Assembly: GCA_036378185.1 (NCBI GenBank)
Contig: DASUWX010000012.1
Span: forward strand, 2,890 to 66,889
Length of the DNA: 64,000 nucleotides
Origin: Streptosporangiales bacterium
Lineage (GTDB): Bacteria > Actinomycetota > Actinomycetes > Streptosporangiales > WHST01
Direction: 5' to 3'
The notes beneath the pieces are model-generated. The model did not search any database and was not told the DNA's origin. It was given only the letters and a program-made list of their open reading frames with translations. Numbering within the stretch: the stretch's first letter is position 1; each line of letters opens with the position of its first letter. Below, in pieces: positions 10,228 through 29,258 of this stretch. The position numbers and the translations under genes were made by a program.

Positions 10228-10229
10228 CG

Positions 10230-11600: not shown

Positions 11601-11664
11601 AGGGGGTTCCCCTCCTATGGCAACGGATTGGTTACGGCTCATCGGACCAGGCGCCGAGCCGACC

Positions 11665-11678
11665 TGGAATCGTTGCCA
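11665..11678. promoter_or_regulatory. Second LacI-type operator candidate
   Basis: The reverse complement of TGGAATCGTTGCCA is TGGCAACGATTCCA, which matches the core of the 11791-11804 site at 13 of 14 positions. It lies 65 nt upstream of SBP start 11600. Confidence 0.45.
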
Positions 11679-11787
11679 CCCGACGTTAAACCACTCGGGT
11701 GAGCTGCACAAGTGGCAGCCTTGACCTGGCCGCGACGCAGTGCTACCGGCTCCCGGGTTGCACCTCCCCGGGCGGCTGCGGTTGGAT

Positions 11788-11807
11788 GTGTGGCATCGAT
11801 TCCACAC
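11788..11807. promoter_or_regulatory. LacI-type operator candidate (20-bp near-perfect palindrome)
   Basis: GTGTGGCATCGATTCCACAC is symmetric at 18 of 20 positions with a central CG, and lies 20 nt upstream of ATG 11827. Confidence 0.55.
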
Positions 11808-11826
11808 CACCAAGGTCTCAACCCGG

Positions 11827-14301
11827 ATGATCCGCCAGGTCCTGCTCGTCCCGCACACGCACCACTACGTCGGCTACACGAACAGCCCGCGCATCGTCGA
11901 CGACCTGCACAGCAGGATCGTCGACGAGGTACTCCGGCTCTGTGCCCGCCACGACCGCCCGGGGCCGGACCGGTTCCGCTGGACGTTCGAGGTCGCGCGG
12001 CCCGTGTTGCGGTTCCTCGACCGCGCCTCGACGACGGACGCCGGCCGTCTCCGCCGGCTCGTCCGTGCCGAGCGCATCAGCGTAACGGGCGGTTATCTCA
12101 ACATGACCCAGCTGCCGTCCGCGGCCGAGCTGGACGCCGGCTACGACGCGCTCGCGGCGTTGCGGGACGCCGGGCTGCCGGTGCGCACCCAGCAGCACGG
12201 TGACGTCAACGGCCTCGCCTGGGGCAGCGTCGAGGGGATGCGGCGTGCCGGGATCGACCGGCTCCTGATGGCCCTCAACCCCGATCACGGGCGCGCGCCG
12301 TACGAGCAGCCGACGGCGTTCTGGTGGGAGGGGCAGAGCGGCGGGCGGGTGTTCGTCTGGCTCTCGACCCACTACGGGGTCGGCGAGGAGTGGGGGATCG
12401 TCGACGGCGACACCGCCCTGGCGGAGGCGAGCATCGCCGGCTTCGTCGAGCGGCTCGAGGCGCGCCCGGATTATCCGTTCGACGCGGCGCTCGTCCACGC
12501 GGCGAACGACAACCGCTGGCCGACGGCGAAACTGCTCGACGTCGTCCGGCACTGGAACGCCGCGCATCCCGAGGCGCCGATGCGTACGGCGACCGTCGAC
12601 CAGGCCCTCGACGTCGTCCAGGCGCAGGCACGAGACGCCGACCTCCCGGTCGCGAGGGGCGAATGGTCGGACTGGTGGTCGCACGGGCACGGCTCGACGG
12701 CCCGCGAGGTGGCGGTCCACCGGGAGGCACGCTCGTTCGCCCGCGCCGCGCAGACCGGGCTCGGCCTGTCGCTGCTCAGGGAGGGCGCGGCACCGGTGGC
12801 CGCGACGGCGGAGGTCATCGGGTACCGCCGCGGCCCCGTGCGGCTGCGGGACGCGGACCGGGTCGTCGCCGACCTCGCCCGTGTCGACGAGGACCTCCTG
12901 CTGTTCGGCGAGCACACGTGGGGCTCCTGGGAGACCTACCGCAGGCCGCACTCCACGTTCAGCCACTCACACTGGAACGCCAAGGCCGGCTTCGCCTACG
13001 CCGCCTACGACCTGGCCAGGGACCTCGCGATCGAGGCGATGTTCAGGCTGGCCGCGCCCGACGGCAGGGCGGGCGGTGGCGACGGCGACGGCGTCCTGGT
13101 CGTCAACCCCACCGAACGCGACCGCACCGAGCCGGTCGTCGTCGAGGTCGACGGGGCGAAGCGGCGGCGGCTGGTCGCGACGGCGCCGGCGTTCGGCGTC
13201 GCCCTGGCTCCGCCGCCCGCGGCGCCGCGGCGTCGCCGCGGCCACGAGCTCGCGCTCGGCCGGTACCGGGTGCGCGTCGACCCGTCGTCCGGCGGGGTGG
13301 CGTCACTGGTGGACGTGCGGTCGGGACGGGAGCTGGTCGACGGCGGTGCCGGGCACGGCCTCGGCGCGGTCGTCGTCGAGCGGCCGGTGGCCGGCAGCAC
13401 CCACCCGATGTTGCACGGGGACCTGCGGGCGTTCCATCCGGACACCCCCGGCCCGGAGTTCGACCGGCACGCCGCCGCCGGCGCGTCCGACGACCCACCC
13501 GAAATCGCGGAGTCGGACGGCCTCGCCGGCATCACATGGCGGTCCAGCGCGCCCGGCGTACCCGAGATCACCACCACCTTGACGCTCCATCGAGACGTCG
13601 ACGCCGTCGACCTCGAGGTGGACCTGGTCAAACCCGAGCACGCCGGGCCGGAGAGCATCTTCGTCGCGTTCCCCTTCGCCGTCGACGATCCCGTCTTCCT
13701 GCTGGAGACCGCGGGCGCGGTGTACGCGGCCGGAACCGAGCAGCTGCCCGACACGAGCAAGGACTGGTTCTCGATCCAGCACGCGGTCGGCGTCACGTCC
13801 GGCACGCACGGTGTGCTGTGGGGGAGCTTCGACGCGCCGCTCGTCCAGCTCGGCGGGTTCCACACCGGCCTGTGGGCGAGAGAGCTCGAGGTGCGCGGCG
13901 GCCACGTGAACAGCTGGCTGATGAACAACCTGCACTTCACGAACTTCCAGGCCCGGCAGGACGGCACCCGCCGGTACCGGTACCGCTTCGCCGCGACCGA
14001 GGGCCCGGTCACCCGCGACCGGGTCGCGGTGTACGGGCGCGACCTGCTCGAGCCGCTGCAGGCGCGGCGGTACACCGGTCCGGTCGAACCTGGCGGGCGC
14101 GGGTTGCGGGTGGAGCCGGCCGAACGACTGTTCGCCGAGGTCCGGCCGGTCGGTACGGCCGCGGTGCGCGTCCGGCTGCGGAACGTCGCGGATGGCCCGG
14201 TGGAAGCGGTCGTGATGTGGGACGGTGCACGGCACGGCGTCCTGGTGCCGGGGCACGGCACGGGGGACGTCGTGCTGGGGCGGCAGGGGAGGATGCGTTG
14301 A
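11827..14301 (+). CDS. Divergent GH38-like (alpha-mannosidase family) protein
   Basis: N-terminus LLVPHTHHYVGYT resembles the GH38 PHSHxDxGW motif but has Tyr where Asp is expected. ~820 aa with no signal peptide. First gene of the operon. Confidence 0.7.
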   Translation: MIRQVLLVPHTHHYVGYTNSPRIVDDLHSRIVDEVLRLCARHDRPGPDRFRWTFEVARPVLRFLDRASTTDAGRLRRLVRAERISVTGGYLNMTQLPSAAELDAGYDALAALRDAGLPVRTQQHGDVNGLAWGSVEGMRRAGIDRLLMALNPDHGRAPYEQPTAFWWEGQSGGRVFVWLSTHYGVGEEWGIVDGDTALAEASIAGFVERLEARPDYPFDAALVHAANDNRWPTAKLLDVVRHWNAAHPEAPMRTATVDQALDVVQAQARDADLPVARGEWSDWWSHGHGSTAREVAVHREARSFARAAQTGLGLSLLREGAAPVAATAEVIGYRRGPVRLRDADRVVADLARVDEDLLLFGEHTWGSWETYRRPHSTFSHSHWNAKAGFAYAAYDLARDLAIEAMFRLAAPDGRAGGGDGDGVLVVNPTERDRTEPVVVEVDGAKRRRLVATAPAFGVALAPPPAAPRRRRGHELALGRYRVRVDPSSGGVASLVDVRSGRELVDGGAGHGLGAVVVERPVAGSTHPMLHGDLRAFHPDTPGPEFDRHAAAGASDDPPEIAESDGLAGITWRSSAPGVPEITTTLTLHRDVDAVDLEVDLVKPEHAGPESIFVAFPFAVDDPVFLLETAGAVYAAGTEQLPDTSKDWFSIQHAVGVTSGTHGVLWGSFDAPLVQLGGFHTGLWARELEVRGGHVNSWLMNNLHFTNFQARQDGTRRYRYRFAATEGPVTRDRVAVYGRDLLEPLQARRYTGPVEPGGRGLRVEPAERLFAEVRPVGTAAVRVRLRNVADGPVEAVVMWDGARHGVLVPGHGTGDVVLGRQGRMR

Positions 14302-15302
14302 CGCGCGACGGGTCGGGGGACGGCGGCGAGCCGTACGTCCTCGGGTTGGACATAGGTGGCACCAAGCTGGCCGCGGGCGTGGTCACCCCGCGCGGCGAGG
14401 CGCTGTCGTTCGTCGTCGGGCCCGGTGGTTCCGGCGACGACGCGGAGTCCGGCGTCAAGCGGTTGTTCGCGCTCGGGCGCGAGGCGATGACCGCCGCCGG
14501 GGTGGAGCCGTCCCGCATCGGCGCGGTGGGCATCGGCTGCGGCGGGCCGCTCGACCCCGCACGCGGTGTCCTCGTCGCGCCGCCGCACCTGCCCGGCTGG
14601 CGCGACGTGCCGATCACCGCCTGGGCACAGCACGAGTTCGACCGGCCGGCGGTCGTCGAGAACGACGGGACGGCTGCGGCGGCGGCCGAGTTCCGGTTCG
14701 GGGCGGGCCGCGGCGTGTCCGACCTCGTCTACCTGACCGTCTCCACCGGGGTCGGCGGCGGCGCCGTCGTCGCCGGGCGGCTGTTCCGCGGCGCGGCCGG
14801 CAACGGCGGCGAGTTCGGCCACGTCACCGTCGACTGGCACGGCCGGCGCTGTGTCGGCTGCGGGCGCCGCGGCTGCCTGGAGGCGTACGCGTCCGGGACG
14901 TCGATCGCGGAGCGCGCACGCGAAGCCGTGCACGCCGGCGAGCCCAGCTCGCTGCCCGGCGGTGCCACCGCCGCCGACGTCGCCGCGGCCGCCGCCGCGG
15001 GTGACCCGCTCGCCGTGCGCATCTGGGACGAGACCACCCTGGCGCTGGGCTGCGGGCTGACGTCGATCGTGAACGTGTTCGAGCCGGAGGTCGCGGTGCT
15101 CGGCGGCGGCGTGACCGAGTCCGGCGAGCAGCTGCTCGCCCCGGTGCGGGCGCGGGTCGAGGCGGATGCGATGGCCGCCGCGGCCGAACGGGTCCGCGTC
15201 GTCCCAGCGGCGCTCGGCCGCCGGGTCGGTGTCATCGGCGCCGCCGCCGCCGTGTGGGAACGTGAGCGGGAGACCGCCGACGGGCGACGGGAGTCGACAT
15301 GA
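14298..15302 (+). CDS. ROK-family sugar kinase
   Basis: LGLDIGGTKLAAG ATP motif, ENDGTAAA, and zinc motif CVGCGRRGCLEAY. TTG 14298 overlaps the GH38-like stop (TTGA). Start codon choice is uncertain. Confidence 0.85.
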   Translation: MTRDGSGDGGEPYVLGLDIGGTKLAAGVVTPRGEALSFVVGPGGSGDDAESGVKRLFALGREAMTAAGVEPSRIGAVGIGCGGPLDPARGVLVAPPHLPGWRDVPITAWAQHEFDRPAVVENDGTAAAAAEFRFGAGRGVSDLVYLTVSTGVGGGAVVAGRLFRGAAGNGGEFGHVTVDWHGRRCVGCGRRGCLEAYASGTSIAERAREAVHAGEPSSLPGGATAADVAAAAAAGDPLAVRIWDETTLALGCGLTSIVNVFEPEVAVLGGGVTESGEQLLAPVRARVEADAMAAAAERVRVVPAALGRRVGVIGAAAAVWERERETADGRREST

Positions 15303-15862
15303 CGGAGCAGCAGATCACCGAGCACGTCGAGCTGGCCGAGCGGGTGCGCGAACTCGTCCCGCTGCTGGACGACGTGGCGGCTCGGCTGATCGGCAGCTAC
15401 GAGTCCGGCGGGCGGCTGTTCACGTTCGGGAACGGCGGATCGGCCGCGGACGCGCAGCACCTCGCGGCCGAGCTCGTCGGCAGGTACAAGAGGGACCGCC
15501 GCCCGCTGCCGGCGGCGGCGCTGTCCGTCGACCCGTCCGTCGTGTCCTGCATCGGCAACGACTACGGGTTCGACGACGTGTTCGCGCGCCAGGTGGAGGC
15601 GTTCGCGGGCCCGTCCGACATGGTCGTCGCGTTCACGACGAGCGGTAGGTCGCTGAACGTCGTCCGCGGCCTCGACGCAGCGCGGAAGCAGGGTGCGACC
15701 GCCGTGCTGTTCGGCGGCGGCGACGGCGGTCCGGCGGTCGCGCACGCCGACGTCGCGCTCGTGGTGCCGTCGTCGACGACGGCGCGCATCCAGGAGATGC
15801 ACCTGATGCTGCTGCACCTGCTGAGCGAACGCGTGGACGCGTGGGCGGCCGGCGGCGACTGA
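15299..15862 (+). CDS. SIS-domain sugar-phosphate isomerase, GmhA/DiaA-type
   Basis: FGNGGSAADAQHLAAELVGRY, CIGNDYGFDDVF and AFTTSGRS are GmhA hallmarks. ATG overlaps the ROK stop (ATGA). Confidence 0.85.
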   Translation: MTEQQITEHVELAERVRELVPLLDDVAARLIGSYESGGRLFTFGNGGSAADAQHLAAELVGRYKRDRRPLPAAALSVDPSVVSCIGNDYGFDDVFARQVEAFAGPSDMVVAFTTSGRSLNVVRGLDAARKQGATAVLFGGGDGGPAVAHADVALVVPSSTTARIQEMHLMLLHLLSERVDAWAAGGD

Positions 15863-15913: not shown

Positions 15914-18346
15914 ATGGTTGAACGCAGGCGGTTGTTGCACATGATCGGCAACGCGCACATCGACGCGGTGTGGCTCTGGCAGTGGCCGGAGGGCTACCAG
16001 GAGGTGCGCGCCACGTTCTGGTCGGCGATCCAGCGGATGGACGAGTATCCCGAGTTCGTCTTCACCTGCGACTCGGTCGCGTACCTCACCTGGGTCGAGG
16101 ACACCGATCCCGAGCTGTTCGAGGCGATCCGCAAGCGCATCGCGGACGGGCGCTGGCAGGTCGTCGGCGGCTGGTGGGTGGAGCCGGACTGCAACATCCC
16201 GTCCGGCGAGTCGTTCGTCCGGCAGGCGTTGCACGGCCAGCGCTACCTGCTGGAGCGGTTCGGCGTCGCCGCCACGGTCGGCTGCAACCTGGACCCGTTC
16301 GGCCACAACGCGCAGCTGCCGCAGCTGTTGCGCAAGGCCGGCATGGACTCCTACGTGTTCCTGCGTCCGGGTCCGCACGAGCAGTCGCTGCCGGGGCCGT
16401 ACTTCTGGTGGGAGGCGCCCGACGGCTCGCGGGTGCTGGCGTACCGGATCGCGCACGAGTACGGCAGCTCGGCGCAGGACGTCGGCTACCAGGTGGACAA
16501 GTCGCTCGCCCAACTGCCGGCCGACGAACCGGAGCTGATGGTGTTCTACGGCGTCGGCAACCACGGCGGCGGGCCGACGCGGGCGAACCTCGACAGCATC
16601 CGGAGACTGGACGCGCTGGACGGGCTGCCCTCGTTGCGGTGCAGCTCACCGCGTGCCTACTTCGACCGGCTGCTCGACCGCGGCGGCGATTTCCCGGTGC
16701 ACGCCGCCGAGCTCCAGCACCACGCCGTCGGCTGCTACTCGGCGCACTCAGGGGTCAAGCGCTGGAACCGCAGGGCGGAGAACATCCTGCAGCGTGCGGA
16801 GAAGTGGGGCGTCGTCGCGACCGTCGTGGGCGAGCTCGACTATCCGTCGGACGCGATGGCCGAGGCGTGGGAACTCGTGCTGTTCAACCAGTTCCACGAC
16901 ACTCTCGCGGGAACGGCGATCCCGTCCGCGTACGAGGACAGCAGGGACCAGTACGGGCACGCAGCCTCCGTCGGCATGTTCACGTTCAACCGCGCGATCC
17001 AGTCGCTGTCGCGCCGCGTGCGGATCCCGTACGAGTCCGACACCTCCCCGGTCGTCGTCTTCAACCCGCACCCGTGGCCCGTGCGCACCGAGGTCGAGCT
17101 GGAGTTCGGCGGCGGCTTCCCGCGGCAACGGGCCGAACTGGTGGACGACCAGGGCCGGCCGGTCGCGGTGCAGGAGGGACGCTCGCACGTCGTCGCGGCC
17201 GGGCGCCGGCGGCTCGTCTTCGCGGCCGAGCTGCCTGCGCTCGGATACCGGCTCTACCGCATCCGTGCGGCGAGCGAGCCCGCCCCGGTGCGGCACGCCG
17301 TCGACGCGCACCGGCTGGAGAACGACCACCTCGCCGTCGAGGTCGACCCCGACACCGGCGCGATCACCGTGCACGACAAGCGGATCGGCGCGGACCTCGT
17401 CGCCGGCGGCACGCACGCCGAGGTGCTCGCCGACACCTCCGACACGTGGGGCCACCGCGTGCGGAGGTACGACCGGGCGATCGGCTCGTTCCGGCCGCGG
17501 CGGCTCCGGATGGTCGAGGACGGGCCGGTGCGCTCGGTGCTGCGCGTGGAGAGCGGGTACGGGTCGTCCACGCTGGTCGAGGAGTTCGTGCTCGGGAGGG
17601 ACGCCGGCCACGTCGACGTCCGCGTCGTCGTCGACTGGCACGAGCAGATGAAGATGCTGAAGCTGCGCTTCCCGACCACGCTCGCGGACGCCCGGGCCAC
17701 GTTCGAGATCCCGTACGGGCACGTGGAACGCGCCACGAACGGCGGCGAGGAGCCGGCCCAGGCATGGGTCGACGTCACCGGCAGGCTCGGCGACGGATCG
17801 GTTGCGGGGTTCACCGTCGCCAACGACGGCAAGTACGGCCACGACGTGCGCGGTGGCGACATCGGCGTGACCTCCGTGCGCAGCCCGGCGTACGCCTGGC
17901 ACGAGCCGAAACCGCTGGACGACGACGTCCACGACTACCTCGACCAGGGCAGGCAGGAGTTCACGCTGCGGCTCATCCCGCACGCCGGCGACTGGCGCGA
18001 CGCCGGGGTCGTCCGGCGGGCGGCCGAGCTGAACCAGCCGGCGTTCCCGCTGCTGGAGTCCTACCACGACGGCGACCTTCCGCCGGACGCCTCGTTCGCC
18101 GAGGTGGACGCCGAGGCCGTGGTGCCGACGGTGTTGAAGCCCGCGGCCGACGGCAGCGGCGACATCGTGCTGCGCGCGTACGAGGCGCACGGCCGGCCCG
18201 CGCACGCGACCGTCACGCTGCGGCTGCTCGACCGCGCCGTGGAGGCGGACTTCGGGCCGGCGGAGGTGAAGACGTTCCGCATCCCGCGGGACGCCGCTCG
18301 CCCGGTCGTCGAGACCGACCTGCTCGAGCGCGAGATCCGGGAGTGA
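15914..18346 (+). CDS. GH38 alpha-mannosidase (cytoplasmic, MngB/AMS1-like)
   Basis: IGNAHIDAVWLWQW, GGWWVEPDCNIPSGESFVRQ and FYGVGNHGGGP are classic GH38 N-domain motifs. No signal peptide. Confidence 0.9.
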   Translation: MVERRRLLHMIGNAHIDAVWLWQWPEGYQEVRATFWSAIQRMDEYPEFVFTCDSVAYLTWVEDTDPELFEAIRKRIADGRWQVVGGWWVEPDCNIPSGESFVRQALHGQRYLLERFGVAATVGCNLDPFGHNAQLPQLLRKAGMDSYVFLRPGPHEQSLPGPYFWWEAPDGSRVLAYRIAHEYGSSAQDVGYQVDKSLAQLPADEPELMVFYGVGNHGGGPTRANLDSIRRLDALDGLPSLRCSSPRAYFDRLLDRGGDFPVHAAELQHHAVGCYSAHSGVKRWNRRAENILQRAEKWGVVATVVGELDYPSDAMAEAWELVLFNQFHDTLAGTAIPSAYEDSRDQYGHAASVGMFTFNRAIQSLSRRVRIPYESDTSPVVVFNPHPWPVRTEVELEFGGGFPRQRAELVDDQGRPVAVQEGRSHVVAAGRRRLVFAAELPALGYRLYRIRAASEPAPVRHAVDAHRLENDHLAVEVDPDTGAITVHDKRIGADLVAGGTHAEVLADTSDTWGHRVRRYDRAIGSFRPRRLRMVEDGPVRSVLRVESGYGSSTLVEEFVLGRDAGHVDVRVVVDWHEQMKMLKLRFPTTLADARATFEIPYGHVERATNGGEEPAQAWVDVTGRLGDGSVAGFTVANDGKYGHDVRGGDIGVTSVRSPAYAWHEPKPLDDDVHDYLDQGRQEFTLRLIPHAGDWRDAGVVRRAAELNQPAFPLLESYHDGDLPPDASFAEVDAEAVVPTVLKPAADGSGDIVLRAYEAHGRPAHATVTLRLLDRAVEADFGPAEVKTFRIPRDAARPVVETDLLEREIRE

Positions 18347-18354: not shown

Positions 18355-20784
18355 ATGACGGGCCGGCTCGACGGGGACGACTGGCAGCTGCGCGGCTTCC
18401 TCGGCGACGAGTGGCGGTGGCATCTCGACAAGCCGTGGGACGCCCCCGGCTGGATGCCGGCCCGGGTGCCCGGCAGCGTGCTCGACGACCTCTGGCGCGC
18501 GGGGGAGATCCCGGACCCGTACGTCGCGAGGAACACCCTCGCGGCCGAGTGGGTGTGGCAACGGGCGTGGGTGTACCGCCGGCGGATCTCCTCTCCCGGC
18601 GACGGGAACGCGGTCCTGCGCTTCGACGGGGTCGACCACGCGGCGACCGTGTGCCTCGACGGGGACGTCGTGGCCGCGCACGAGGGCATGTTCGTGCCGT
18701 TCGAGGTCGACGTCACCGACGCGCTCGCGGACGGCGCCGAGCACCTGCTCGCCGTCGTCGTCCATCCCGCCCCCGCGAACGAGCCACAGGTCGGGGAGAC
18801 GCACCGGGTGTCGGTGCACAAGAGCCGGATGGGCTACGGCTGGGACTTCTGCCCACGCCTCGTGCACCAGGGCGTCTGGCGCCCGGTCACGCTGACGGCA
18901 TGGCGGCACGCGCGGCTCGTCGACGTCTCGGTCGGCACGATGCTGGCGGAGGATCTGGCCACCGGCTCCGTCGAGGTGGTCGCCGAGGTCGAGGGCGTGG
19001 CGGACGCCGGGCTGCGCGTGACCGTCGCCGACGGCGACACCGTGGTAGCGAGTTCGGTCGAGGACGTGCGCGTCGACGGGCGTTCCCGGGTCCGGTCGAC
19101 CCTGCCGGTCGAACGGCCCAGGCTGTGGTGGCCGAACGGAGCGGGCGAGCAGCCGCTCTACCGGGTCGGCGTCGAGCTGTCGGTGCCAGGCGTCGCTCCG
19201 GGTGCGTCCGGCACCGAGAGGTACGTGGGGTTCCGACACCTCGCGGGACTGCCGCACGAGCCGGCCGTCAACGGCGAGCGGATGTTCGTCAAGGGCTGGA
19301 ACTGGGTGCCGCTCGACGCGCTCTACGGCGTCCCGCGCCCGGAGAAGCTCGACCACCTGCTGCGCCTCGCGAAGGAGGCGAACGTCAACCTGCTGCGCGT
19401 CTGGGGCGGCGGGCTGATCGAGACGCCCGGGTTCTACGACCGCTGCGACCGGCTCGGCCTGCTCGTGTGGCAGGAGTTCGCCATGTCCAGCTCCGGCTTC
19501 GCGAGCGTGCCGTCGGACGCACCGGGCTTCGTCGACCTGATGGTGCGCGACGCGCACGCGATCGTGCCGCCGCTGCGGCATCATCCCTCGCTCGCGATGT
19601 GGTGCGGCGGCAACGAGTTGGCCGGTCCCGAGGGCCCGCTGGACGACACGACACCGGTGCTCGGTGCCTTGCGCGACGTGGTGCGCGAGCTCGACCCGGG
19701 CCGTGCCTGGCTGCCGACGTCGCCGTCGCCGCACGACGACCACGGGCCGTGGGAGCACCAGGGCGTGAACGAACACCAGCGCTGCTACGACGCCGGCACG
19801 ACGCCGCTGCACAGCGAGTTCGGCGTCGAGGGCATGACCAACCCGCGCACCCTCGACGCCGTCGTGCCCGCCGGCTCGCGCTGGCCGGCCGATCGCGACA
19901 ACCCGGTCTACGCGCACCTGGGCGCGTGGTGGAACAACGCACCGCTCGTCCGGGCGTCGTTCGGCGGCCGGCTGCACGACCTCGACACCCTCGGCAGGGC
20001 CAGCAGGTTCCTGCAGGCCGACGGGCTGCGTTACGCCGTGGAGGCCAACCGGCGCAGGGCGCCGCGGTGCGGCGGCACGCTCCCGTGGCAGTTCGACGAG
20101 TCGTACCCGAACGCCTGGTGCACTGCCGCTGTCGACCACCGCGGCGACCCCAAGCCCGCCTACCACGCCGTCCGCCGCGCGTACTCCCGCCATCACGTGA
20201 GCGCCGCGTTCGAGCGGCAGGCGTGGGCGGGCGAGTCCGCGTTCGCGGCGCGGGTGTGGGCGTGCCTGGACGCGGCCGGGCCGGCGACGGTGACCGCGCG
20301 GCTGGTCGACGTGTGGGGGATGCCGCTGGCCGATCGGACCTGGACGGTCGACCTGCCCGCCGGCGAGGCCCGGCAGCTCGGCGAGCTCACCGCCGACCTG
20401 ACCGTCTCCGGCAGCGACGTGGTCGTCCTCGACCTCTCGCTGGACGCCGGCGACGGCGGGCAGCGGAACCGGTATCTGTTCAGCCGCACGGATGACCTCG
20501 CGCCGTTGCTCGACCTCCCCCCTGCCACGGTCGACGTCGAGGCCCGGCACGGCAGCGACTCGACACGGATCCGGGCCCGGCATGTCGACGGGCCCGCCGC
20601 GCTCGGCCTCGTGTTCGCCGACGGCCGCCGGTACGACGCGCCGGGCTGGGCGGTGTTCTCGGACAACTGGCTCGACCTCCTGCCCGGGGAGTCGGCGGCG
20701 GTGGACGTCCGCTGGCGTGCCGCGGGTGACGAGCGTCTGCTCTCCCTGGACGGGTGGAACGTGACGGTGCCCGATGTCCGCTGA
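18355..20784 (+). CDS. GH2 family beta-mannosidase-like glycosidase
   Basis: ATG 18355 is in frame with ORF 15970..20784. VPGSVLDDLWRAGEIPDPY, WCGGNEL (acid/base) and HSEFGVEG (nucleophile) match the GH2 beta-mannosidase pattern. Confidence 0.85.
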   Translation: MTGRLDGDDWQLRGFLGDEWRWHLDKPWDAPGWMPARVPGSVLDDLWRAGEIPDPYVARNTLAAEWVWQRAWVYRRRISSPGDGNAVLRFDGVDHAATVCLDGDVVAAHEGMFVPFEVDVTDALADGAEHLLAVVVHPAPANEPQVGETHRVSVHKSRMGYGWDFCPRLVHQGVWRPVTLTAWRHARLVDVSVGTMLAEDLATGSVEVVAEVEGVADAGLRVTVADGDTVVASSVEDVRVDGRSRVRSTLPVERPRLWWPNGAGEQPLYRVGVELSVPGVAPGASGTERYVGFRHLAGLPHEPAVNGERMFVKGWNWVPLDALYGVPRPEKLDHLLRLAKEANVNLLRVWGGGLIETPGFYDRCDRLGLLVWQEFAMSSSGFASVPSDAPGFVDLMVRDAHAIVPPLRHHPSLAMWCGGNELAGPEGPLDDTTPVLGALRDVVRELDPGRAWLPTSPSPHDDHGPWEHQGVNEHQRCYDAGTTPLHSEFGVEGMTNPRTLDAVVPAGSRWPADRDNPVYAHLGAWWNNAPLVRASFGGRLHDLDTLGRASRFLQADGLRYAVEANRRRAPRCGGTLPWQFDESYPNAWCTAAVDHRGDPKPAYHAVRRAYSRHHVSAAFERQAWAGESAFAARVWACLDAAGPATVTARLVDVWGMPLADRTWTVDLPAGEARQLGELTADLTVSGSDVVVLDLSLDAGDGGQRNRYLFSRTDDLAPLLDLPPATVDVEARHGSDSTRIRARHVDGPAALGLVFADGRRYDAPGWAVFSDNWLDLLPGESAAVDVRWRAAGDERLLSLDGWNVTVPDVR

Positions 20785-22687
20785 CGACCTCGCGCTCGAC
20801 GTCTCCGTGCTCCTGAAGGACGGGGGAGTCTCGGGCGACTTCGACACGGCGTACGAGAAGAGCGACGAGGGCAGCGGGCGTACGCAGGTCCGGCTCACCG
20901 TGACGTGCACGGCGGACGAGCCGGTCGAGGCGGGCGTCCGCGTGGCGGCCGCGCTCGGCGTCACGTCCGACCCGCACTGGCTGATCCCCGGGCTGTTCTA
21001 CGGCGAGAACCGGCTGGCGTCGTGCACGCGGCTCTACCCGCGGTTCGTCGCGACCGGCGCCGACCCGGCCCGGTTCGAGTCGGCGTCCTGGAGCTTCCGC
21101 GCCGACCGGTGCGCGACGCCCGCGGTTTTCGCGTGGGACGACGAAGGAGGGCTGGCGCTCGTCACGGCCGAGACGTCGCCGCTGGGGCAGGCGGGTGTCG
21201 GGTTCGCCTTCGCGGACGGGAGACCGTTGCTGCGCCTGCACTTCCCGTACCGCGAGGAGCCGGTCGCCTACGACGGCTCGGACGTCGCCCGTCCCGCGGA
21301 CCTGCCCGCGTACCGCTGGGCGCCGGGGGAGACGGCCGTCCTCGAGTTCGCCGTCCACCGGCTGTCGGCCGACCGGCACGACTACACCCGGGTCATCCGC
21401 GACGTGCACGCGCGTGGCAGGCAGAAGGCGGACGCGGCATGGGTCCCGATCGAGCAGGCCGCCGAGCTGACCGCCTGGGGACTGTGGCGCTGGCACTACA
21501 GGCCGGACCCGCCCGTGCTGCTCGAGACCGCGGCGTTCGACCGCGACGCGTTCGGCGACACGGCCGACAGGAAGGCGATGCACGTCTCCTGGGTCAGTGG
21601 CGTGCCGTACGCGCACGCCCTTCTGCTGCACGGCCGCCGCGTCGGTGCCGACAGGTACGTCGACGCCGCGACCGCGGTCATCGACAACGTCGCCGCGAAC
21701 CTCGCGCCGGGCGGCACCTTCTGGGGGCAGTGGAGCGCTTCGCGGGGCTGGCCCGGCGGGGATTCCGGGGGTGGCGGAGTGTGGACCGTCGGGTGGACGC
21801 CTGACCCGCGCCGGTTGCACGCGCGGACGCTGGGGGACGCCGCATTGTTCCTGGCCCGCGCGATCGCCGCGGAGCGCGCGCACGGTGTCGAGCATCCCGA
21901 CTGGGTCGCCGCGCTGCGGTCGAACCTCGACGTCGCCTGCGGGAGCCGGCGTGCCGACGGCGCGCTCGGCGCGGCGTACGACGCGCACACCGGAGAGGTG
22001 CTGTCGTGGGAGGGCAGCGCGGGGCTCGCCTGGGTGCCCGCGCTCGCGGAGGCGTCGGTCGCGCTCGGCGAGCCGCGCTACCTCGACGCCGCACGCCGGG
22101 CCGGCGCGTACTACCGCGCGACGCTCGACACCGAGTGGCTGTGCGGCGCGCCCGAGGACGTCGACCTCGCGCCCACGTCCGAGGACGGCTACCTCGCCGT
22201 CGTCGCGTACGTGGTGCTGCACGAGCTCGACCGGGGCGGCGGATGGCTGGACGCGGCGCGGCGTGCCGCCGACTGGACGCTGAGCTTCCGCTACACCTAC
22301 GACGTCGCGTTCCCGCCGCGCACGCTGCTCGGCCGGTACGGGTTCCGCTCCCGCGGCGCCGACCAGGCGTCCCCGGCGAACCAGCACCTGCACTCGTTCG
22401 GGTTGATCTGCCTGCCCGAGATGGTGCGGCTCGCGCGGTACACCGGTGACGGGTACTACCTCGCGTCCACGCGGGAGAACCTCGACTGCTTCCGGCAGTT
22501 CGTCGCCCGGGAGGACGGCGACTTCGACGCGTACCGCGGCATGGTGAGCGAGCGCTTCTACCAGACCGCGTGCTTCCAGGCGAAGGGCATGCTGCTGACG
22601 CTCTCGCACGCGTGGTGCGTCGGCGTGCTGCTGTACGCCTGCGAGGCGGCGCTGTCGATCCAGGAGCTGAACGGCGGAAGAGCGTGA
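20774..22687 (+). CDS. Uncharacterised 637-aa cytoplasmic protein, helical-repeat (possibly alpha/alpha-barrel) C-terminal half
   Basis: Strong GC3 frame. The start overlaps the GH2 stop by 11 nt and the stop overlaps the GH1 GTG (GTGA). No motif I can assign to a known family. Confidence 0.75.
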   Translation: MSADDLALDVSVLLKDGGVSGDFDTAYEKSDEGSGRTQVRLTVTCTADEPVEAGVRVAAALGVTSDPHWLIPGLFYGENRLASCTRLYPRFVATGADPARFESASWSFRADRCATPAVFAWDDEGGLALVTAETSPLGQAGVGFAFADGRPLLRLHFPYREEPVAYDGSDVARPADLPAYRWAPGETAVLEFAVHRLSADRHDYTRVIRDVHARGRQKADAAWVPIEQAAELTAWGLWRWHYRPDPPVLLETAAFDRDAFGDTADRKAMHVSWVSGVPYAHALLLHGRRVGADRYVDAATAVIDNVAANLAPGGTFWGQWSASRGWPGGDSGGGGVWTVGWTPDPRRLHARTLGDAALFLARAIAAERAHGVEHPDWVAALRSNLDVACGSRRADGALGAAYDAHTGEVLSWEGSAGLAWVPALAEASVALGEPRYLDAARRAGAYYRATLDTEWLCGAPEDVDLAPTSEDGYLAVVAYVVLHELDRGGGWLDAARRAADWTLSFRYTYDVAFPPRTLLGRYGFRSRGADQASPANQHLHSFGLICLPEMVRLARYTGDGYYLASTRENLDCFRQFVAREDGDFDAYRGMVSERFYQTACFQAKGMLLTLSHAWCVGVLLYACEAALSIQELNGGRA

Positions 22688-24057
22688 CCGCGTTGCGGTT
22701 CCCCGACGGGTTCCTGTGGGGCGTGGCGACGTCGGCGTACCAGGTCGAGGGCTCGGTGCGCGCGGACGGCCGCGGCGAGTCGATCTGGGACCGGTTCAGC
22801 CACGAGCCGGGCCGGATCGACGGCGGCGACACCGGCGACGTCGCCTGCGACCACTACGCGCGCTGGCGCGAGGACGTCGACCTGATGACCGAGCTCGGCG
22901 TCAACGCGTACCGCTTCTCGATCGCCTGGCCGCGGCTGTTCCCTACCGGTGCGGGGCCGGTCGAGCGGCGCGGCCTCGACCATTACGACCGGTTGCTGGA
23001 CGCCTTGCTGGACAAGGGGATCACGCCGATCGTCACCCTGTACCACTGGGATCTGCCGCAGGCGCTGCAGGACCGCGGCGGCTGGCGGGACCGTGCCACC
23101 GTCGACCGGTTCGCCGACTACGCCCGCACCTGCTTCGACGCGTACGGCGACCGCGTCGACTGGTGGGTGACCCAGAACGAGCCGTGGATCGTCGGGTTGC
23201 TCGGCCACCGGCTCGGGCTGCACGCGCCGGGGGAGCGCGACCTCGCCGCGTCCGTCACCGTCATGCACCACCTGCTGCTCGCGCACGGCCGGGCGAGCGC
23301 CGCGCTGCGGGCGAGCGACCACCCGGGCAGGGCCGGCGTGGCGCAGGCCCTGTTCCCGAACTACCCCGCCACCGACTCTCCCGAGGACAGGGCGGCGGCG
23401 TACGCCTCGGACGGCTACGTGAACCGCTGGGTGCTCGACCCTCTGTTCCGCGGCGAGTACCCGCGGGACATGGCGGAACACTACGAGCGCATCGGCGCGC
23501 CGCTGTCGGCCGTCCGCGACGGCGACCTGGCCGAGATCGCGACGGGCTGCGACTTCATCGGCGTCAACTACTACACCGACCGGGTGATCCGTGCGGGGGA
23601 GGGCGACGGGCCGTTCGGCTGGCAGGTACTGCCGGTGCCCGAGGGCACCCGCGTGACCGACGCCGGCTGGAAGGTGACACCGGAGGCGTTCACCGACCTG
23701 CTCGTCCGGCTGCACACCGACTATCCCGGCGTACCGCTTCTCGTCACCGAGAACGGCGGCGTCTACGGCGACGGGCCGGACGCCGACGGCCGGGTCAGGG
23801 ACGCCCGGCGGGTGGCGTTCCTGCACGACCACCTCACCGCGTTGCACCGCGCGGTCTCCGCCGGCGTTCCCGTCCGCGGCTACTGCCACTGGTCCCTCAT
23901 GGACAACTTCGAGTGGGCGATGGGCTACGCGAAACGGTTCGGCCTGGTGCACGTCGACTACGCGACGCAGCGGCGGACGGTGAAGGACAGCGGCCGGTAC
24001 TACCGGCAGGTCGCGACGTCCGGCGTCCTGCCGCCGACCCCGTGCGGCGAACCGTGA
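22684..24057 (+). CDS. GH1 beta-glucosidase/beta-glycosidase
   Basis: FLWGVATSAYQVEG, TLYHWDLPQ, VTQNEPW (acid/base) and VTENG (nucleophile). Confidence 0.92.
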   Translation: MTALRFPDGFLWGVATSAYQVEGSVRADGRGESIWDRFSHEPGRIDGGDTGDVACDHYARWREDVDLMTELGVNAYRFSIAWPRLFPTGAGPVERRGLDHYDRLLDALLDKGITPIVTLYHWDLPQALQDRGGWRDRATVDRFADYARTCFDAYGDRVDWWVTQNEPWIVGLLGHRLGLHAPGERDLAASVTVMHHLLLAHGRASAALRASDHPGRAGVAQALFPNYPATDSPEDRAAAYASDGYVNRWVLDPLFRGEYPRDMAEHYERIGAPLSAVRDGDLAEIATGCDFIGVNYYTDRVIRAGEGDGPFGWQVLPVPEGTRVTDAGWKVTPEAFTDLLVRLHTDYPGVPLLVTENGGVYGDGPDADGRVRDARRVAFLHDHLTALHRAVSAGVPVRGYCHWSLMDNFEWAMGYAKRFGLVHVDYATQRRTVKDSGRYYRQVATSGVLPPTPCGEP

Positions 24058-24124: not shown

Positions 24125-25657
24125 GTGACGGCGACGGGACGGCACGCCGAGCTGGTGGTGTACGCCGCGACCGCGGCGGGTGTCGCCGCGGCCGTGTCCG
24201 CGGCGAGGCACGGCGTCGGCGTCGTGCTGCTCGAACCCGGCCGCCACGTCGGCGGCATGGTGTCGGGCGGCCTGGGGTACACCGACGTCGGCGACGCCCG
24301 GGTCGTCGGCGGCATCGCGCGCGAGTTCGCCGCGGCCGTCGCGGAGCACTACGGCGTGCGGATCGGGGACTATGCGGGGCCCGAGCCGCACGTCGCCGAG
24401 CAGATCTTCCGTCGCTGGCTCGAGGACGCCGGTGTCGAGGTCGTGCACGACGCACCGCTCGGCGGCGTCGAACTGGCGGGCGCTCGGATCGTCGCCGTCA
24501 CCGCGGGCGGGAAGCGTTACACCGCAGGGGTCTTCGTGGACGCCGGCTACGAGGGCGATCTGCTCGCGAAGGCGGGCGTGCCGTACGCCGTCGGCCGCGA
24601 GGACCGGTCGCTGCACGGTGAGTCGCTCGCCGGGCGCACCGAGATCCGGCCCGGCAAGCATCAGTTCCCGCACTACGTCTCGCCGTTCCGCGCCGGCACC
24701 GACGAGGTGGTGCCGTTCGTCAGGAACGAGCCGATGGCCGACGTGGGCGCCGGCGACGGCGCGGTGATGTCCTACGGCTACCGCGTCTGCCTGAGCAGCG
24801 GGCCCGACCGCCGGCCCTTCGAGCGCCGTGACGGGTACGACCCGGCGCAGTGGGAGCTGGCGCGCAACTGGTTCCGCCGGCTCGCCGAGGACGGCGTCGA
24901 GCTGCGCGCCGACCAGGTCGTCGGCCTGGTGCGCAACCTGCCCAACGGCAAGTGCGACGGCAACTCGATCGGGCCGTTCTCCCTGAACCTGCTGGACGGC
25001 ACCAACCGGGCGTACCCCGACGGCTCACCGGAGGATCGCGAGCGCGTGCGGCGCGTGCACCGCGACTACACGCGCGACTTCTTCTGGTTCATGTCGACCG
25101 ACCCCGACGTGCCCCGTGGCGTGCGCGACGGGCTCGCCGCATGGGGCTGGGCCGCCGACGAGTTCCTCGACACCGACGGCCTGCCGCACCAGTTCTACGT
25201 CCGCGAGGCGCGGCGCATGCGGGGTGAGTACGTGCTGACCCAGCACGACCTGCTGCCGGCACCCCGCCGCCAGTACGACGTCGTGGCGATGGGTTCGTAC
25301 CACATCGACGTCCGCGAGGTGCAGCGCGTGTGGCGCAGCGCGTACGAGCACCCGGACGAGCGCTGCGAGGTCGTCAACGAGGGCTACCAGTCCATCGGCG
25401 TGCGGCCGTACCCGATCCCGTACCGCTCCCTGGTGCCCCGCTTCGACGACTGCTCGAACCTGATCGTCCCGGTGTGCGTGAGCGCGTCGCACGTGGCGTT
25501 CGCGTCGGTCCGGATGGAGCCGCAGTACGAGATGCTCGGCCACATCGCCGGCCTGGCCGCCGTGCTCGCTCTCGCCGGCGACCGGGAGGTGCAGCGCGTC
25601 GACGTCGGCGAGCTGCAGCGCCGGCTGGTGGACGAGGGCCAGGTCCTGGCCCTGTGA
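24125..25657 (+). CDS. FAD-dependent oxidoreductase (FAD_oxidored-type, function unknown)
   Basis: N-terminal dinucleotide fold LVVYAATAAGVAAAVSAARHGVGVVLLEPGRHVGGM. Last gene of the mannoside operon. Confidence 0.8.
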   Translation: MTATGRHAELVVYAATAAGVAAAVSAARHGVGVVLLEPGRHVGGMVSGGLGYTDVGDARVVGGIAREFAAAVAEHYGVRIGDYAGPEPHVAEQIFRRWLEDAGVEVVHDAPLGGVELAGARIVAVTAGGKRYTAGVFVDAGYEGDLLAKAGVPYAVGREDRSLHGESLAGRTEIRPGKHQFPHYVSPFRAGTDEVVPFVRNEPMADVGAGDGAVMSYGYRVCLSSGPDRRPFERRDGYDPAQWELARNWFRRLAEDGVELRADQVVGLVRNLPNGKCDGNSIGPFSLNLLDGTNRAYPDGSPEDRERVRRVHRDYTRDFFWFMSTDPDVPRGVRDGLAAWGWAADEFLDTDGLPHQFYVREARRMRGEYVLTQHDLLPAPRRQYDVVAMGSYHIDVREVQRVWRSAYEHPDERCEVVNEGYQSIGVRPYPIPYRSLVPRFDDCSNLIVPVCVSASHVAFASVRMEPQYEMLGHIAGLAAVLALAGDREVQRVDVGELQRRLVDEGQVLAL

Positions 25658-26056: not shown

Positions 26057-26231
26057 GATGGTTCTCCAAGGTCGTGAGGTCGTCCGTCACCGCCTACACG
26101 AACGGGGCACGCCCGGATCGACACCGACAGCGGGCAGGAACCGCGGCGCGGCCGATCCGGCGCGGGCGACCGGCGGTGGTGCCCGGCCCGTGCCCTCGGG
26201 AACACCCGGTACCTGCGCCCCGGCTGGGACG

Positions 26232-26966: not shown

Positions 26967-27105
26967 TCAGCTCACGAGCGTCCGGCATCTGCGTTCCCGT
27001 CCGCCGACGGCCGGTAGTGCCCGGAACGAGGTCCCCGGCAGGGTTGTCCGGCAGCGGACGGCGTGGCCGAATGGAGGTGAACGGAACGCGGCACGGAGAG
27101 CGAGG

Positions 27106-28524: not shown

Positions 28525-28555
28525 CGCTCGCCGACGAGGCTGCTAGCTTGCGGCC

Positions 28556-29212: not shown

Positions 29213-29213
29213 T

Positions 29214-29234: not shown

Positions 29235-29258
29235 CCCGCGGCCGGCACGGCGGCGGAG

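Follow-up and report, generated by a model that had tools for sequence, protein, structure and literature searches.

A cytoplasmic two-domain protein of an unnamed six-hairpin family as a fixed part of an actinobacterial operon for imported mannose-containing sugars

The window, which is the whole stretch of 64,000 nucleotides of a Streptosporangiales bacterium contig that was analysed, contains a co-directional run of eight genes with overlaps or gaps of no more than 68 nt, and the target gene lies in this run between a GH2 and a GH1 gene. The features of the run and of its surroundings are as follows.

1..1452, + strand: MBL-fold (Lactamase_B) protein, truncated at the window start, conserved member at the 5' end of the cluster
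1449..3212, + strand: c13, second unassigned protein of the conserved cluster, 587 aa, GH36/GH31-like fold according to fold matches
8339..11864, - strand: ABC importer, with permeases at 8339-9277 and 9259-10227 and a solute-binding protein at 10230-11864
14298..15302, + strand: ROK-family sugar kinase, its TTG start overlapping the stop of the upstream gene (TTGA)
15299..15862, + strand: SIS-domain isomerase, GmhA-like, below the equivalog cut-offs in the profile search
15914..18346, + strand: GH38 alpha-mannosidase, Ams1 type (cytosolic), complete (Ams1 structures, E 4e-74)
18355..20784, + strand: GH2 of the beta-mannosidase type, directly upstream of the target (best PDB matches 5n6u and 2je8, E 1e-66 to 1e-63)
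20774..22687, + strand: target gene, 637 aa, ATG start (ORF list, translation, codon-position GC, homologues and AF2 model)
20774..20784, + strand: overlap of target start and GH2 stop, 11 nt, translational coupling (junction sequence)
22684..22687, + strand: overlap of GH1 start and target stop, GTGA, 4 nt (junction sequence and GH1 model matches)
22684..24057, + strand: GH1 beta-glucosidase (TIGR03356, above its cut-off)
24125..25657, + strand: PF12831 FAD-dependent oxidoreductase, final gene of the co-directional run (profile search)

The GC content of the window (72-75%) yields long chance ORFs in every frame, such as one of 709 aa on the minus strand (20480..22609), and ORF length alone is therefore no proof of the target gene. 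It is a real gene, judged so because of its codon-position GC of 0.72/0.55/0.95 (GC3 0.95) and its more than 1283 homologues at E<=1e-3, nearly all of which are named 'hypothetical'. In the 5' junction (cccgATGtccgcTGAcg) the target ATG begins at 20774 and the GH2 stop codon occupies 20782-20784; in the 3' junction (...gagcGTGAcc...) the GTG of GH1 begins at 22684 and the target TGA spans 22685-22687, with GH1 models aligning from residue 5-6 of the protein that starts at 22684. Both overlaps described in the original prediction, including the 11 nt shared with the GH2 gene, were confirmed in this way, and its view of a gene translationally coupled inside a glycan-degrading operon is borne out by the overlaps and by the GH38, GH2 and GH1 neighbours. 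An ATGA overlap couples the c13 gene translationally to the MBL gene, and YihQ structures are among the fold matches of its product. The ABC importer is divergent from the operon in the window and co-directional in most relatives, and the PF12831 oxidoreductase (24125..25657) has no PDB sequence relative. No GH125, GH76 or GH92 was observed among the scanned coding-like ORFs of the window, which agrees, for the window, with the earlier statement that GH125 has no recognised gene here; DeoC and FGGY genes are absent from the window's own operon.

Synteny was counted over 80 genomes, and the proposed check of co-occurrence with GH38 and GH2 gave a clear pattern, with an Ams1-type GH38 gene upstream on the same strand in 77/80 genomes and the nearest upstream gene of the target homologue being GH2 in 38 and GH38 in 33. 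The usual partners are a ROK kinase, a GmhA-like SIS isomerase and an ABC importer, often with GH2, GH1 and the PF12831 flavoprotein (24/80 loci), and the 5' end of the conserved cluster is formed by the MBL-fold protein and the GH36/GH31-like protein; the target homologue is fused to an MBL domain in one relative (P0141). DeoC-type aldolase genes were observed in 56/80 loci and FGGY kinase genes in 36/80, and the flavoprotein gene comes straight after the target homologue, or overlaps it, in several Pseudonocardiales loci. A homologue of 42% identity (L091) belongs to overlapping genes in the order PfkB-MPI-FGGY-DeoC-target, on a 9.8-kb contig where no GH38 was found. Uronate-catabolic genes were absent from the operons examined, and the conserved operon has no phosphomannomutase/phosphoglucomutase, while sugar kinases are always there. 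Among the distant relatives, one from Lentisphaera has GH2, GH28, GH31 and esterase genes around it; it adjoins ThuA and a 2-hydroxyacid dehydrogenase, and a TRAP transporter lies close by, as does GH28. Another adjoins permeases and GH13. The target family is a constant component of a conserved operon with which actinobacteria break down imported mannose-containing sugars.

Searches with the target returned no match in Pfam (E<=1), in NCBIfam or among PDB sequences (E<=10), in keeping with the original observation that no CAZy-type motif could be matched; PF07221 does not match the target itself, and a GH125 sequence signal is absent from it and from 64 diverse relatives. These relatives display weak Pfam signals of GH127_cat (20/64), GH88 (8/64), GlcNAc_2-epim (7/64, the best at 2.1e-7) and GH76 (3/64). 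Among PDB sequences the family profile reaches only GH76 alpha-1,6-mannanases (Aman6, E 1.5e-5), where two alignments fall on the same hairpin type, and GH105/GH88 (YteR/GH105, E 2e-4), while hhalign gave a probability of 22% against YihS over a single 32-residue hairpin and of 0.3% against GH63 YgjK, and the PL27 sequence, present in the PDB set, was matched by neither family profile. The remote sequence signal points solely to the six-hairpin clan. The target belongs to no described family, which supports the earlier suggestion of a new one. As a candidate for a new family of carbohydrate-active enzymes it is good, though not extraordinary.

The AlphaFold2 model of the target (pLDDT 87.9, pTM 0.91) has a beta-sandwich at the N-terminus and, after it, an (alpha/alpha)6 barrel with 12-13 paired helices, encoded as follows.

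20774..21373, + strand: N-terminal beta-sandwich, approximately residues 1-200, strands within 8-197 (AF2 secondary structure, conservation)
21374..22687, + strand: (alpha/alpha)6 barrel, approximately residues 201-627 (AF2 model, structure matches, conservation)

The helical-hairpin look of the C-terminal half, from which an alpha/alpha barrel had been guessed, is real: the '...YL.aA...A.w' motif is repeated there, hairpins align to GH76, and the model and the structure matches give the barrel. No signal-peptide-like stretch was observed at the N-terminus, and the target is a two-domain cytoplasmic protein whose family, as yet unnamed, belongs to the six-hairpin superfamily. Foldseek against the PDB, the structure search that had been proposed, returned 140 structures at E<=1e-3, and the best 50 of these are nearly all (alpha/alpha)6 carbohydrate-active enzymes. 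The PL27 lyase 5no8 ranks first (E 1.3e-10, full-length, the only match at E<1e-9), and GH94, AGE-type isomerases, GH63, GH76 and GH88 come next. The sandwich-and-barrel layout is shared by three full-length matches, namely PL27 5no8, GH94 8bou and GH63 YgjK, all of which cleave glycosidic bonds. The barrels of GH76 and GH105/GH88 reach TM-scores of 0.6-0.69 normalised to the target; AGE-type isomerases, with TMt of 0.58-0.66, match as well as glycosidases, with mannose isomerase, cellobiose 2-epimerases and YihS at ranks 4-5, 9, 14, 41 and 49, and GH125 is absent from the best 50 of the 140. The outcomes that the original prediction named as counter-evidence were not observed: no confident match to a family of non-glycan function emerged, the link with glycosidase genes is kept in relatives, and the fold is similar to that of carbohydrate-active enzymes.

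Six long loops (242-276, 309-349, 391-415, 453-468, 504-546 and 577-612) lie on one face of the barrel and hold nearly all of its conserved polar residues, as seen from the AF2 model and the alignment. The residues kept down to 21-25% identity are D462, E470, E593, H538, N536, S533, Q575, Y447 and W614 in the barrel and Y76, N79, W106, D111 and R112 in the N-domain. The codons of the candidate active site, all taken from the alignment, are as follows.

21104..21109, + strand: D111-R112, N-domain
22157..22159, + strand: D462, 'GAPED' loop, 60/64 diverse relatives, candidate catalytic carboxylate
22181..22186, + strand: E470-D471, 'SED', N-terminus of an inner helix, E470 being a candidate catalytic carboxylate
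22550..22552, + strand: E593, last catalytic-face loop, candidate general base

Position 470 is Glu in 53/64 relatives and Asp in 6 more, and E593 occurs in 49/64 overall and in nearly all of the most distant ones. Judging from this conservation, D462, E470 and E593 may have catalytic roles, and D111-R112 probably form part of the active site. Conserved His residues in the close family are H241, H270, H349, H538 and H612, and conserved basic residues are R112, R351 and R506.

The explanation we prefer, though with somewhat less than even confidence, is that the target acts on a mannose-containing hetero-oligosaccharide, breaking a glycosidic bond which GH38, GH2 and GH1 cannot cut. The oligosaccharide, for example a fragment of fungal mannoprotein or N-glycan, would be imported through the ABC transporter and dismantled in the cytoplasm by the operon enzymes. 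The gene order of the operon runs from the MBL-fold enzyme, GH36/GH31-like protein, transporter, ROK kinase, SIS isomerase and Ams1-type GH38 to an optional GH2 beta-mannosidase, the target, an optional GH1 and an optional flavoprotein, usually with a DeoC-type aldolase and FGGY kinase at the 3' end. The beta-sandwich would pack against the barrel, at whose mouth the six loops would form the walls of the pocket and the N-domain loop D111-R112 its lid. The general acid would be D462 or E470 and the general base E593, and the mechanism a single displacement like that of GH15, GH63 and GH125. Hydrolysis as the chemistry, the individual residue roles and the substrate are what we infer; as the operon has a kinase and no phosphomutase, hydrolysis fits better than phosphorolysis. 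In Streptomyces lavendulae feeding on yeast, secreted GH92 genes are induced first and intracellular GH38 genes afterwards (PMC13170338). Several observations count against a glycosidase: the structure that matches best belongs to a lyase and not to a hydrolase; on the barrel, AGE-type isomerases equal glycosidases (TMt 0.6-0.66); a simple glycosidase role gives no explanation for the frequent DeoC-type aldolase and FGGY kinase, or for the direct coupling to DeoC in L091; and the Ams1-type GH38 and GH2 might already suffice for oligomannose.

These aldolase and kinase partners would be accounted for by a serious rival, itself unlikely, in which the target is a sugar isomerase or epimerase like YihS, mannose isomerase or cellobiose 2-epimerase and converts an aldose or reducing-end residue to a ketose; the sugar released by the glycosidases would become a ketose, be phosphorylated by the FGGY kinase and be split by the DeoC/LacD-type aldolase in an EMP-like side pathway. 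The gene set parallels E. coli sulfoglycolysis (GH31 YihQ, isomerase YihS, kinase YihV and aldolase YihT), where YihS is an (alpha/alpha)6 isomerase and YihT is of the DeoC/LacD type, and c13 folds like GH36/GH31 including YihQ, so that the neighbourhood logic is comparable. The L091 gene order, the fold matches, the GlcNAc_2-epim signals and the conserved His residues of the close family point the same way. However, the hhalign match to YihS is confined to one hairpin, the residues conserved family-wide are carboxylates and not the His pair of AGE enzymes, and the most conserved of all lie in an extra N-domain, whereas AGE-family enzymes are, to our knowledge, single-domain. Moreover, ROK and SIS (PfkB and MPI in L091) already complete a route from mannose to fructose-6-P, and the window operon has neither DeoC nor FGGY gene.

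That the target is an exo-alpha-1,6-mannosidase replacing GH125, with GH38 taking the alpha-1,2/1,3 mannose and the target the alpha-1,6 branch of imported oligomannose, seems quite improbable. GH125 (SpGH125, CpGH125) is of the same fold class, the scanned window ORFs include no GH125, GH76 or GH92 gene, the linkage to GH38 is near-obligate and the best PDB sequence matches of the family profile are alpha-1,6-mannanases. Against this, GH125 lacks both a sequence signal in the 64 relatives and a place in the best 50 fold matches; we know of no GH125 enzyme other than single-domain proteins of about 430 aa, and of none with the extra N-terminal beta-sandwich, which in the 637-aa target carries family-invariant residues. 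The likeness to GH76 (Aman6, BT2949, BT3782) and GH105/GH88 (YteR, UGL), which have no N-domain, is confined to one or two generic 'TGD..YL..A' hairpins, and the helix aligned to GH76 is preceded by WEGSAG in place of the consecutive catalytic Asp pair of GH76. Characterised Ams1-type GH38 enzymes cut alpha-1,2, alpha-1,3 and alpha-1,6 bonds, c13, a putative alpha-glycosidase, could equally supply a missing alpha-linkage activity, and L091 has no GH38 on its contig. The GH38/GH125 pairing that the original prediction named for Actinomycetota is documented in Cutibacterium acnes, with a cytoplasmic GH38 partner in N-glycan loci (PMC6160142). The proposal that the target supplies a GH125-like activity therefore stands as to fold class and is neither proven nor favoured as to function.

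A lyase of PL27-related mechanism, which would release a sugar through beta-elimination at a uronic acid, or at a residue pre-oxidised by the PF12831 flavoprotein, is a long shot. Its evidence comes from the top-ranking L-rhamnose-alpha-1,4-D-glucuronate lyase BACCELL_00875 (5no8), whose N-terminal beta-sandwich and following (alpha/alpha)6 barrel (PMC8377490) repeat the target layout, from the flavoprotein genes adjoining the target in Pseudonocardiales, from the Lentisphaera neighbourhood and from R112, R351 and R506. Yet the identity is 11%, TMq is 0.48, no sequence profile connects the two and the flavoprotein occurs in just 24/80 loci; PL27 is extracellular/periplasmic and acts on glucuronate-containing arabinogalactan, whereas the target is cytoplasmic in a mannoside operon without uronate genes. 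A glycoside phosphorylase like GH94/GH65, with the beta-sandwich adding to the phosphate site, is highly improbable, since the full-length fold matches of GH94 (8bou, 8ho7, 3s4c and 4zle) and the conserved Arg and His are set against the missing phosphomutase beside ever-present kinases, low GH94 TM-scores (0.31-0.35) and E593, a third conserved carboxylate where hydrolases place the base.

The two-domain inverting enzymes GH63 (YgjK) and GH15 and the GH94/GH65 phosphorylases share beta-sandwich and (alpha/alpha)6 barrel with the target. Judged by position, the placing of its candidate acid in the middle of the barrel and of its candidate base in the last catalytic-face loop would also be common to them; the domain arrangement differs from the GH63/GH94 type because full-length alignments give TMq 0.31-0.35 and rmsd >22 A. 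No entry labelled as MmpH, which has a structure in the PDB, appeared among the sequence matches or the best 50 fold matches of the target. MmpH, the mycobacterial endo-alpha-1,4-mannosidase for methylmannose polysaccharide, is like the target a cytoplasmic (alpha/alpha)6 enzyme of actinobacteria; its substrate is an alpha-mannoside and it stands outside the classical families (PMC9883506), but it is single-domain and closest to GH15/GH125, whereas the target has two domains.

The open reading frame at 20774–22687 (+) comprises 637 codons from an ATG start and is a real gene, as evidenced by its codon-position GC of 0.72/0.55/0.95 (positions 1/2/3) and by more than 1283 database homologues, many of which are 60–84% identical over the full length. 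ORF length was given no weight as evidence, because in DNA of 66–75% G+C, as in the window, long ORFs arise by chance on both strands, such as a 709-aa frame at 20480–22609 (−). The overlaps with both neighbors that the original prediction had described were observed, with the ATG at 20774 preceding the GH2 TGA at 20782–20784 (11 nt) and the stop codon at 22685–22687 lying on the GH1 GTG at 22684; GH1 models align from residue 5–6 of the protein starting there. The gene belongs to a co-directional run of eight, in which neighboring genes overlap or are separated by at most 68 nt.

Genes of the co-directional run, in order
Gene 1: 853-aa protein with weak likeness to the GH38 N-domain
Gene 2: ROK kinase, in TTGA overlap with the preceding gene
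Gene 3, 15299–15862 (+): SIS isomerase, overlapping the ROK stop by 4 nt
Gene 4: GH38 of the Ams1 (cytosolic) type
Gene 5: GH2 of the beta-mannosidase type
Gene 6, 20774–22687 (+): the 637-aa protein
Gene 7, GTG start at 22684: GH1
Gene 8, 24125–25657 (+): PF12831 flavoprotein

No N-terminal signal-like sequence was found in the products of the eight genes, and a scan of the operon for promoters and terminators was uninformative in this GC-rich DNA. The first ORF (11740–14301 (+), probable start near 11827) exhibits a weak GH38 N-domain match (E 4e-8), the N-terminal motif LLVPHTHHYVG and TTGA coupling to the ROK gene; it is absent from all 80 related loci and is therefore an addition specific to the window. 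For the PF12831 FAD-dependent oxidoreductase, PDB sequences gave no relative at E ≤ 0.01, and in several Pseudonocardiales loci its gene lies directly 3′ of, or overlaps, the relative of the 637-aa gene.

Neither Pfam (E ≤ 1) nor NCBIfam produced a match for the 637-aa protein, and PDB sequences gave none at E ≤ 10 with the protein or with a 61-sequence profile, in line with the earlier remark that it carries no CAZy-type motif. The AlphaFold2 model built on the 61-sequence alignment (mean pLDDT 87.9, pTM 0.91) contains a beta-sandwich (residues 8–197) followed by 12–13 paired helices (residues 201–627), and its sole internal segment with pLDDT below 50 is a Gly-rich insertion, PGGDSGGGGVWTV (residues ~324–340, window ~21746–21796), which is missing from most relatives and stands where the family consensus reads GW.AGWTPD. 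Foldseek returned 140 PDB matches to the model at E ≤ 1e-3, and nearly all of the best 50 of these are (alpha/alpha)6 carbohydrate-active enzymes, so that model and matches both agree with the alpha/alpha barrel guessed at first reading. The top match was the PL27 rhamnose-glucuronate lyase 5no8 (E 1.3e-10, full length, 11% identity, TMq 0.48), followed by GH94 phosphorylases, a mannose isomerase, cellobiose 2-epimerases, YihS, GH63 YgjK, GH76 mannanases and GH88 hydrolases.

Sequence-level signals were faint and all directed to the six-hairpin clan. Among 64 diverse relatives, sub-threshold Pfam matches were observed to GH127_cat (20), GH88 (8), GlcNAc_2-epim (7), C5-epimerase (6), GH76 (3) and LanC (2), and the profile of diverse relatives (A2) reached GH76 Aman6 (E 1.5e-5) and YteR/GH105 (E 2e-4) in the PDB, spanning just one or two repeated 'TGD..YL..A' hairpins. 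These are the helical-hairpin repeats that had been noticed by eye; as evidence of family membership the A2 matches were rejected, being generic hairpins of GH76 and GH105 alone. The protein exhibits the (alpha/alpha)6 toroid, the conserved polar long-loop face and the remote signal to several families that mark the six-hairpin glycosidase-like superfamily, and it belongs to that superfamily at the fold level and to no described family, because the fold matches are accompanied by only faint sequence signals. As a candidate new family of carbohydrate-active enzymes it is well supported, its fold and the type of its operon being known ones.

Similarity to individual families remained below the family level. 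The Aman6 profile match covers 84 of ~340 residues, and Pfam GH76 left the protein itself unmatched, its best E among the three matching relatives being 7e-4. In GH76 enzymes an inner helix begins with a pair of adjacent catalytic Asp; in the register of the profile match, the aligned helix of the 637-aa protein is preceded by 'WEGSAG' and has no Asp-Asp, and a conserved E470-D471 at a helix start one hairpin later could be an analogous pair. For GH63/GH15-type enzymes, hhalign against E. coli YgjK gave 0.3% probability, and the full-length Foldseek alignment to YgjK has an rmsd of ~24 Å. The GH127/GH146 signal was below the gathering score in all 20 relatives (best 7e-5) and absent from the protein itself, with the match in one relative confined to profile positions 71–215. 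C572 and C600 never vary among close relatives but are not kept across the wider family, and a GH127-like mechanism with a Cys nucleophile was accordingly rejected. The closest parallel in the literature is one of spirit, with the actinobacterial MmpH, an alpha-mannosidase of (alpha/alpha)6 fold that falls outside the classical families (PMC9883506); no MmpH-labelled entry occurred among the sequence matches or the best 50 of 140 Foldseek matches.

Over 140 positions show no variation within the close family, and D462 (60/64 relatives), E470 (53/64, with Asp in a further 6) and E593 (49/64) are kept down to 21–25% identity. Other polar residues conserved across the wide family are H538, N536, S533, Q575, Y447 and W614 in the barrel and Y76, N79, W106, D111 and R112 in the N-domain. 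In the model, the conserved barrel residues all lie within the six long loops joining the helix pairs, which share one barrel face; (alpha/alpha)6 enzymes usually have their active site on this long-loop face. The conservation of the N-domain loop suggests that it contributes to the pocket, as such loops also do in GH15, GH63, GH65, GH94 and GH92. D462 and E470 lie at ~60% and E593 at ~92% of the barrel, and in GH125, GH63 and GH15 the catalytic acid and base, as in YihS the two His, occupy similar relative positions. D462, E470 and E593 are putative catalytic residues, judged from conservation and position.

The family is large and almost entirely unnamed. An exhaustive profile search recovered 1144 clusters (50% identity) at E ≤ 1e-3 and 181 at E ≤ 1e-30; nearly all source names seen were 'hypothetical protein', the sole other being 'YyaL domain-containing', and the literature search found no paper describing the family. 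With a pattern derived from the close-family alignment and one genome per species, relatives were detected in 297 of ~185,000 species genomes, in Streptomyces, Micromonosporaceae, Pseudonocardiales, Actinoallomurus/Actinomadura, Gaiellales, Acidimicrobiia and one Chloroflexia MAG. Neighborhoods were counted by tblastn with the proteins of the window in the best 80 loci of these 297 species.

Genes accompanying the relatives in the best 80 loci
GH38, upstream on the same strand: 77/80 (the other three contigs too short)
SIS isomerase: 68/80
ROK kinase: 66/80
GH1: 61/80
DeoC/LacD-type aldolase: 56/80
GH2: 42/80
FGGY kinase: 36/80
Asp/Glu-racemase-like protein: 30/80
PF12831 flavoprotein: 24/80
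GH13: 11/80

In terms of the co-occurrence with GH38 and GH2 that had been proposed as a check, the nearest gene 5′ of the relative is GH2 in 38 loci and GH38 in 33. By eye, a look-alike of the DUF1537-type (four-carbon acid sugar) kinase was also seen downstream in 6 of the 80. Pfam annotation of six related contigs agrees with the cluster layout. Two further genes head the cluster: both were detected in 26 of the 27 loci with a 10-kb flank that extends far enough, and both are present in the window.

Genes at the 5′ end of the cluster in the window
1–1452 (+), cut by the window start: MBL-fold (Lactamase_B) protein, with ATGA coupling to the next gene at 1449–1452
1449–3212 (+): 587-aa protein, c13

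Homologues of the MBL-fold protein are ~600 aa long and constitute the first gene of the operon in related genomes; a role as phosphodiesterase, lactonase or sulfatase is conceivable. The c13 protein has no Pfam match and more than 1000 homologues, a few of which are auto-named as alpha-galactosidase or alpha-amylase family. Its AlphaFold2 model (pLDDT 92) shows a beta-sandwich and a TIM barrel, with the GH36 alpha-galactosaminidase 9ayu as best fold match (E 5.5e-22) ahead of GH36 alpha-galactosidases and of GH31 enzymes, among them the sulfoquinovosidase YihQ, and it carries the motifs VVIDDKWQ and GLK.DF. c13 may represent a new alpha-glycosidase family as well, the second such candidate in the cluster.

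The isomerase and kinase of the run were illuminated by a distant locus (L091, a 9.8-kb contig without GH38), where a 42%-identical homologue follows a PfkB kinase, a mannose-6-phosphate-isomerase-type cupin, FGGY and DeoC, in that order, the run being divergent from c13 and MBL. There, PfkB and the MPI-type cupin (3730–5624) take the place of ROK and SIS, which supports a hexose kinase and a mannose-6-P-type isomerase for the latter two and suggests that the SIS protein of the operon works as a mannose-6-phosphate-type isomerase. This protein scores 170 bits against the sedoheptulose-7-phosphate isomerase GmhA, below the equivalog cut-offs, and heptose salvage was set aside, as the swap points to ordinary hexose phosphate isomerization. 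MBL, c13, the aldolase and FGGY are the most persistent partners.

The operon as a whole is interpreted as importing an oligosaccharide and dismantling it in the cytoplasm, with mannose converted to fructose-6-P by its kinase and isomerase. Fungal mannoprotein or N-glycan fragments are a reasonable guess for the substrate, because of the Ams1-type GH38, the beta-mannosidase, the beta-glucosidase and a possible MBL phosphodiesterase acting on mannosyl-phosphate; intracellular GH38 genes are induced in a Streptomyces preying on yeast (PMC13170338). Our tentative first choice for the 637-aa protein itself is that it cleaves a glycosidic bond that the other glycosidases of the operon cannot cut, because every structural relative with its two-domain layout cuts such bonds, carboxylates are the residues kept throughout the family, its gene holds a constant place flanked by glycosidase genes, and it is accompanied by kinases and not by phosphomutases.

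The strongest rival, though an unlikely one, is a YihS-like isomerase. A GH31/36-like glycosidase, an (alpha/alpha)6 protein, a kinase and a DeoC/LacD-type aldolase together mirror the sulfoglycolysis cluster of E. coli, but the family profile, aligned to E. coli YihS with hhalign, gave an insignificant 22.5% probability over 32 columns. The AGE superfamily model (PF07221) likewise left the protein unmatched, with seven of the 64 relatives sub-threshold; as to the catalytic His pair on the barrel loops of AGE enzymes, H538 is nearly universal in the family and the other universal residues are Asp/Glu.

The original prediction had offered the protein as a possible substitute for the missing exo-alpha-1,6-mannosidase GH125, a reading that has a small chance and is not favored. 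Both have an (alpha/alpha)6 barrel, a feature common to many families and hence non-discriminating; Pfam Glyco_hydro_125 gave no match in the protein at E ≤ 1, the family was absent from the 18 matched by any of the 64 diverse relatives, and the GH125 structures 3qt3, 3qpf and 3qry were not among the best 50 of 140 Foldseek matches.

A similarly small chance is given to a broader, more novel reading. The aldolase, FGGY, Asp/Glu-racemase-like, GH13 and DUF1537-like genes recur downstream in related loci (L006–L085) and none occurs in the window, and a simple mannoside reading leaves them unexplained. The 637-aa protein, c13, MBL, the DeoC-type aldolase and FGGY might together constitute a cytoplasmic pathway, so far undescribed, that handles an unusual sugar or head group of a glycoconjugate. 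The protein would then not be a classical hydrolase and would serve either as the isomerase in an EMP-like route comparable to sulfoglycolysis or as an eliminase with the PF12831 flavoprotein; if true, the enzyme family and the catabolic route would both be new, the route being widespread in soil Actinomycetota.

Even less probable is a PL27-like lyase, possibly partnered by the PF12831 flavoprotein. PL27 combines a beta-sandwich with a barrel (PMC8377490), and 5no8 shares this layout with the protein; the 5no8 sequence, present in the searched PDB set, had no match at E ≤ 10 with the protein or with the close-family (A1) or A2 profile, and uronate catabolic genes are absent from the operon. 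A glycoside phosphorylase is very improbable, since kinases are present in the operons and a phosphomutase is not.

Once a reaction is assigned, the protein would most likely found a new family, either in CAZy or among isomerases, and the assignment would help to define the food of the operon, possibly fungal mannoprotein or N-glycan fragments. For the CAZyme specialist this is an expected rather than surprising kind of discovery, concerning a large family with a fixed place in a well-conserved sugar-utilization operon of soil Actinomycetota, and since the operon holds at least two more conserved enzymes without a family, a single substrate discovery would annotate several 'hypothetical' families.

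Distant relatives occupy other contexts. In Lentisphaera araneosa (ABCK01000021.1, 10001–11983), a 28%-identical relative adjoins a GDSL esterase, a 2-hydroxyacid dehydrogenase and ThuA, with GH2, GH28, GH31 and a TRAP transporter nearby, and this subfamily probably acts on a different substrate; another relative lies between ABC permeases and GH13, and three further contexts gave little or no information. Fused forms were also observed, such as P0141, where a relative is joined to an MBL domain, and the metagenomic P0238 (1234 aa), which unites a GH2 C-terminal Ig domain, the 637-aa family and the start of a GH1 domain and is either a real fusion or a gene-call merger across overlapping genes.

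Elsewhere in the window, a 1345-aa protein (55229–59266 (+)) has only C-terminal matches, to NPCBM_assoc and Laminin_G_3, the first ~1000 residues being without a match, and apparently unrelated genes occupy 25998–32272, 3′ of the operon.

Genes 3′ of the operon
Within 25998–32272: DUF2071 gene
27106–28524: selenium-binding-protein-56 homologue
Within 25998–32272: MDMPI_N protein gene
29259–30089 (−): endonuclease/exonuclease/phosphatase-family protein
30365–32272: pro-kumamolisin-type peptidase
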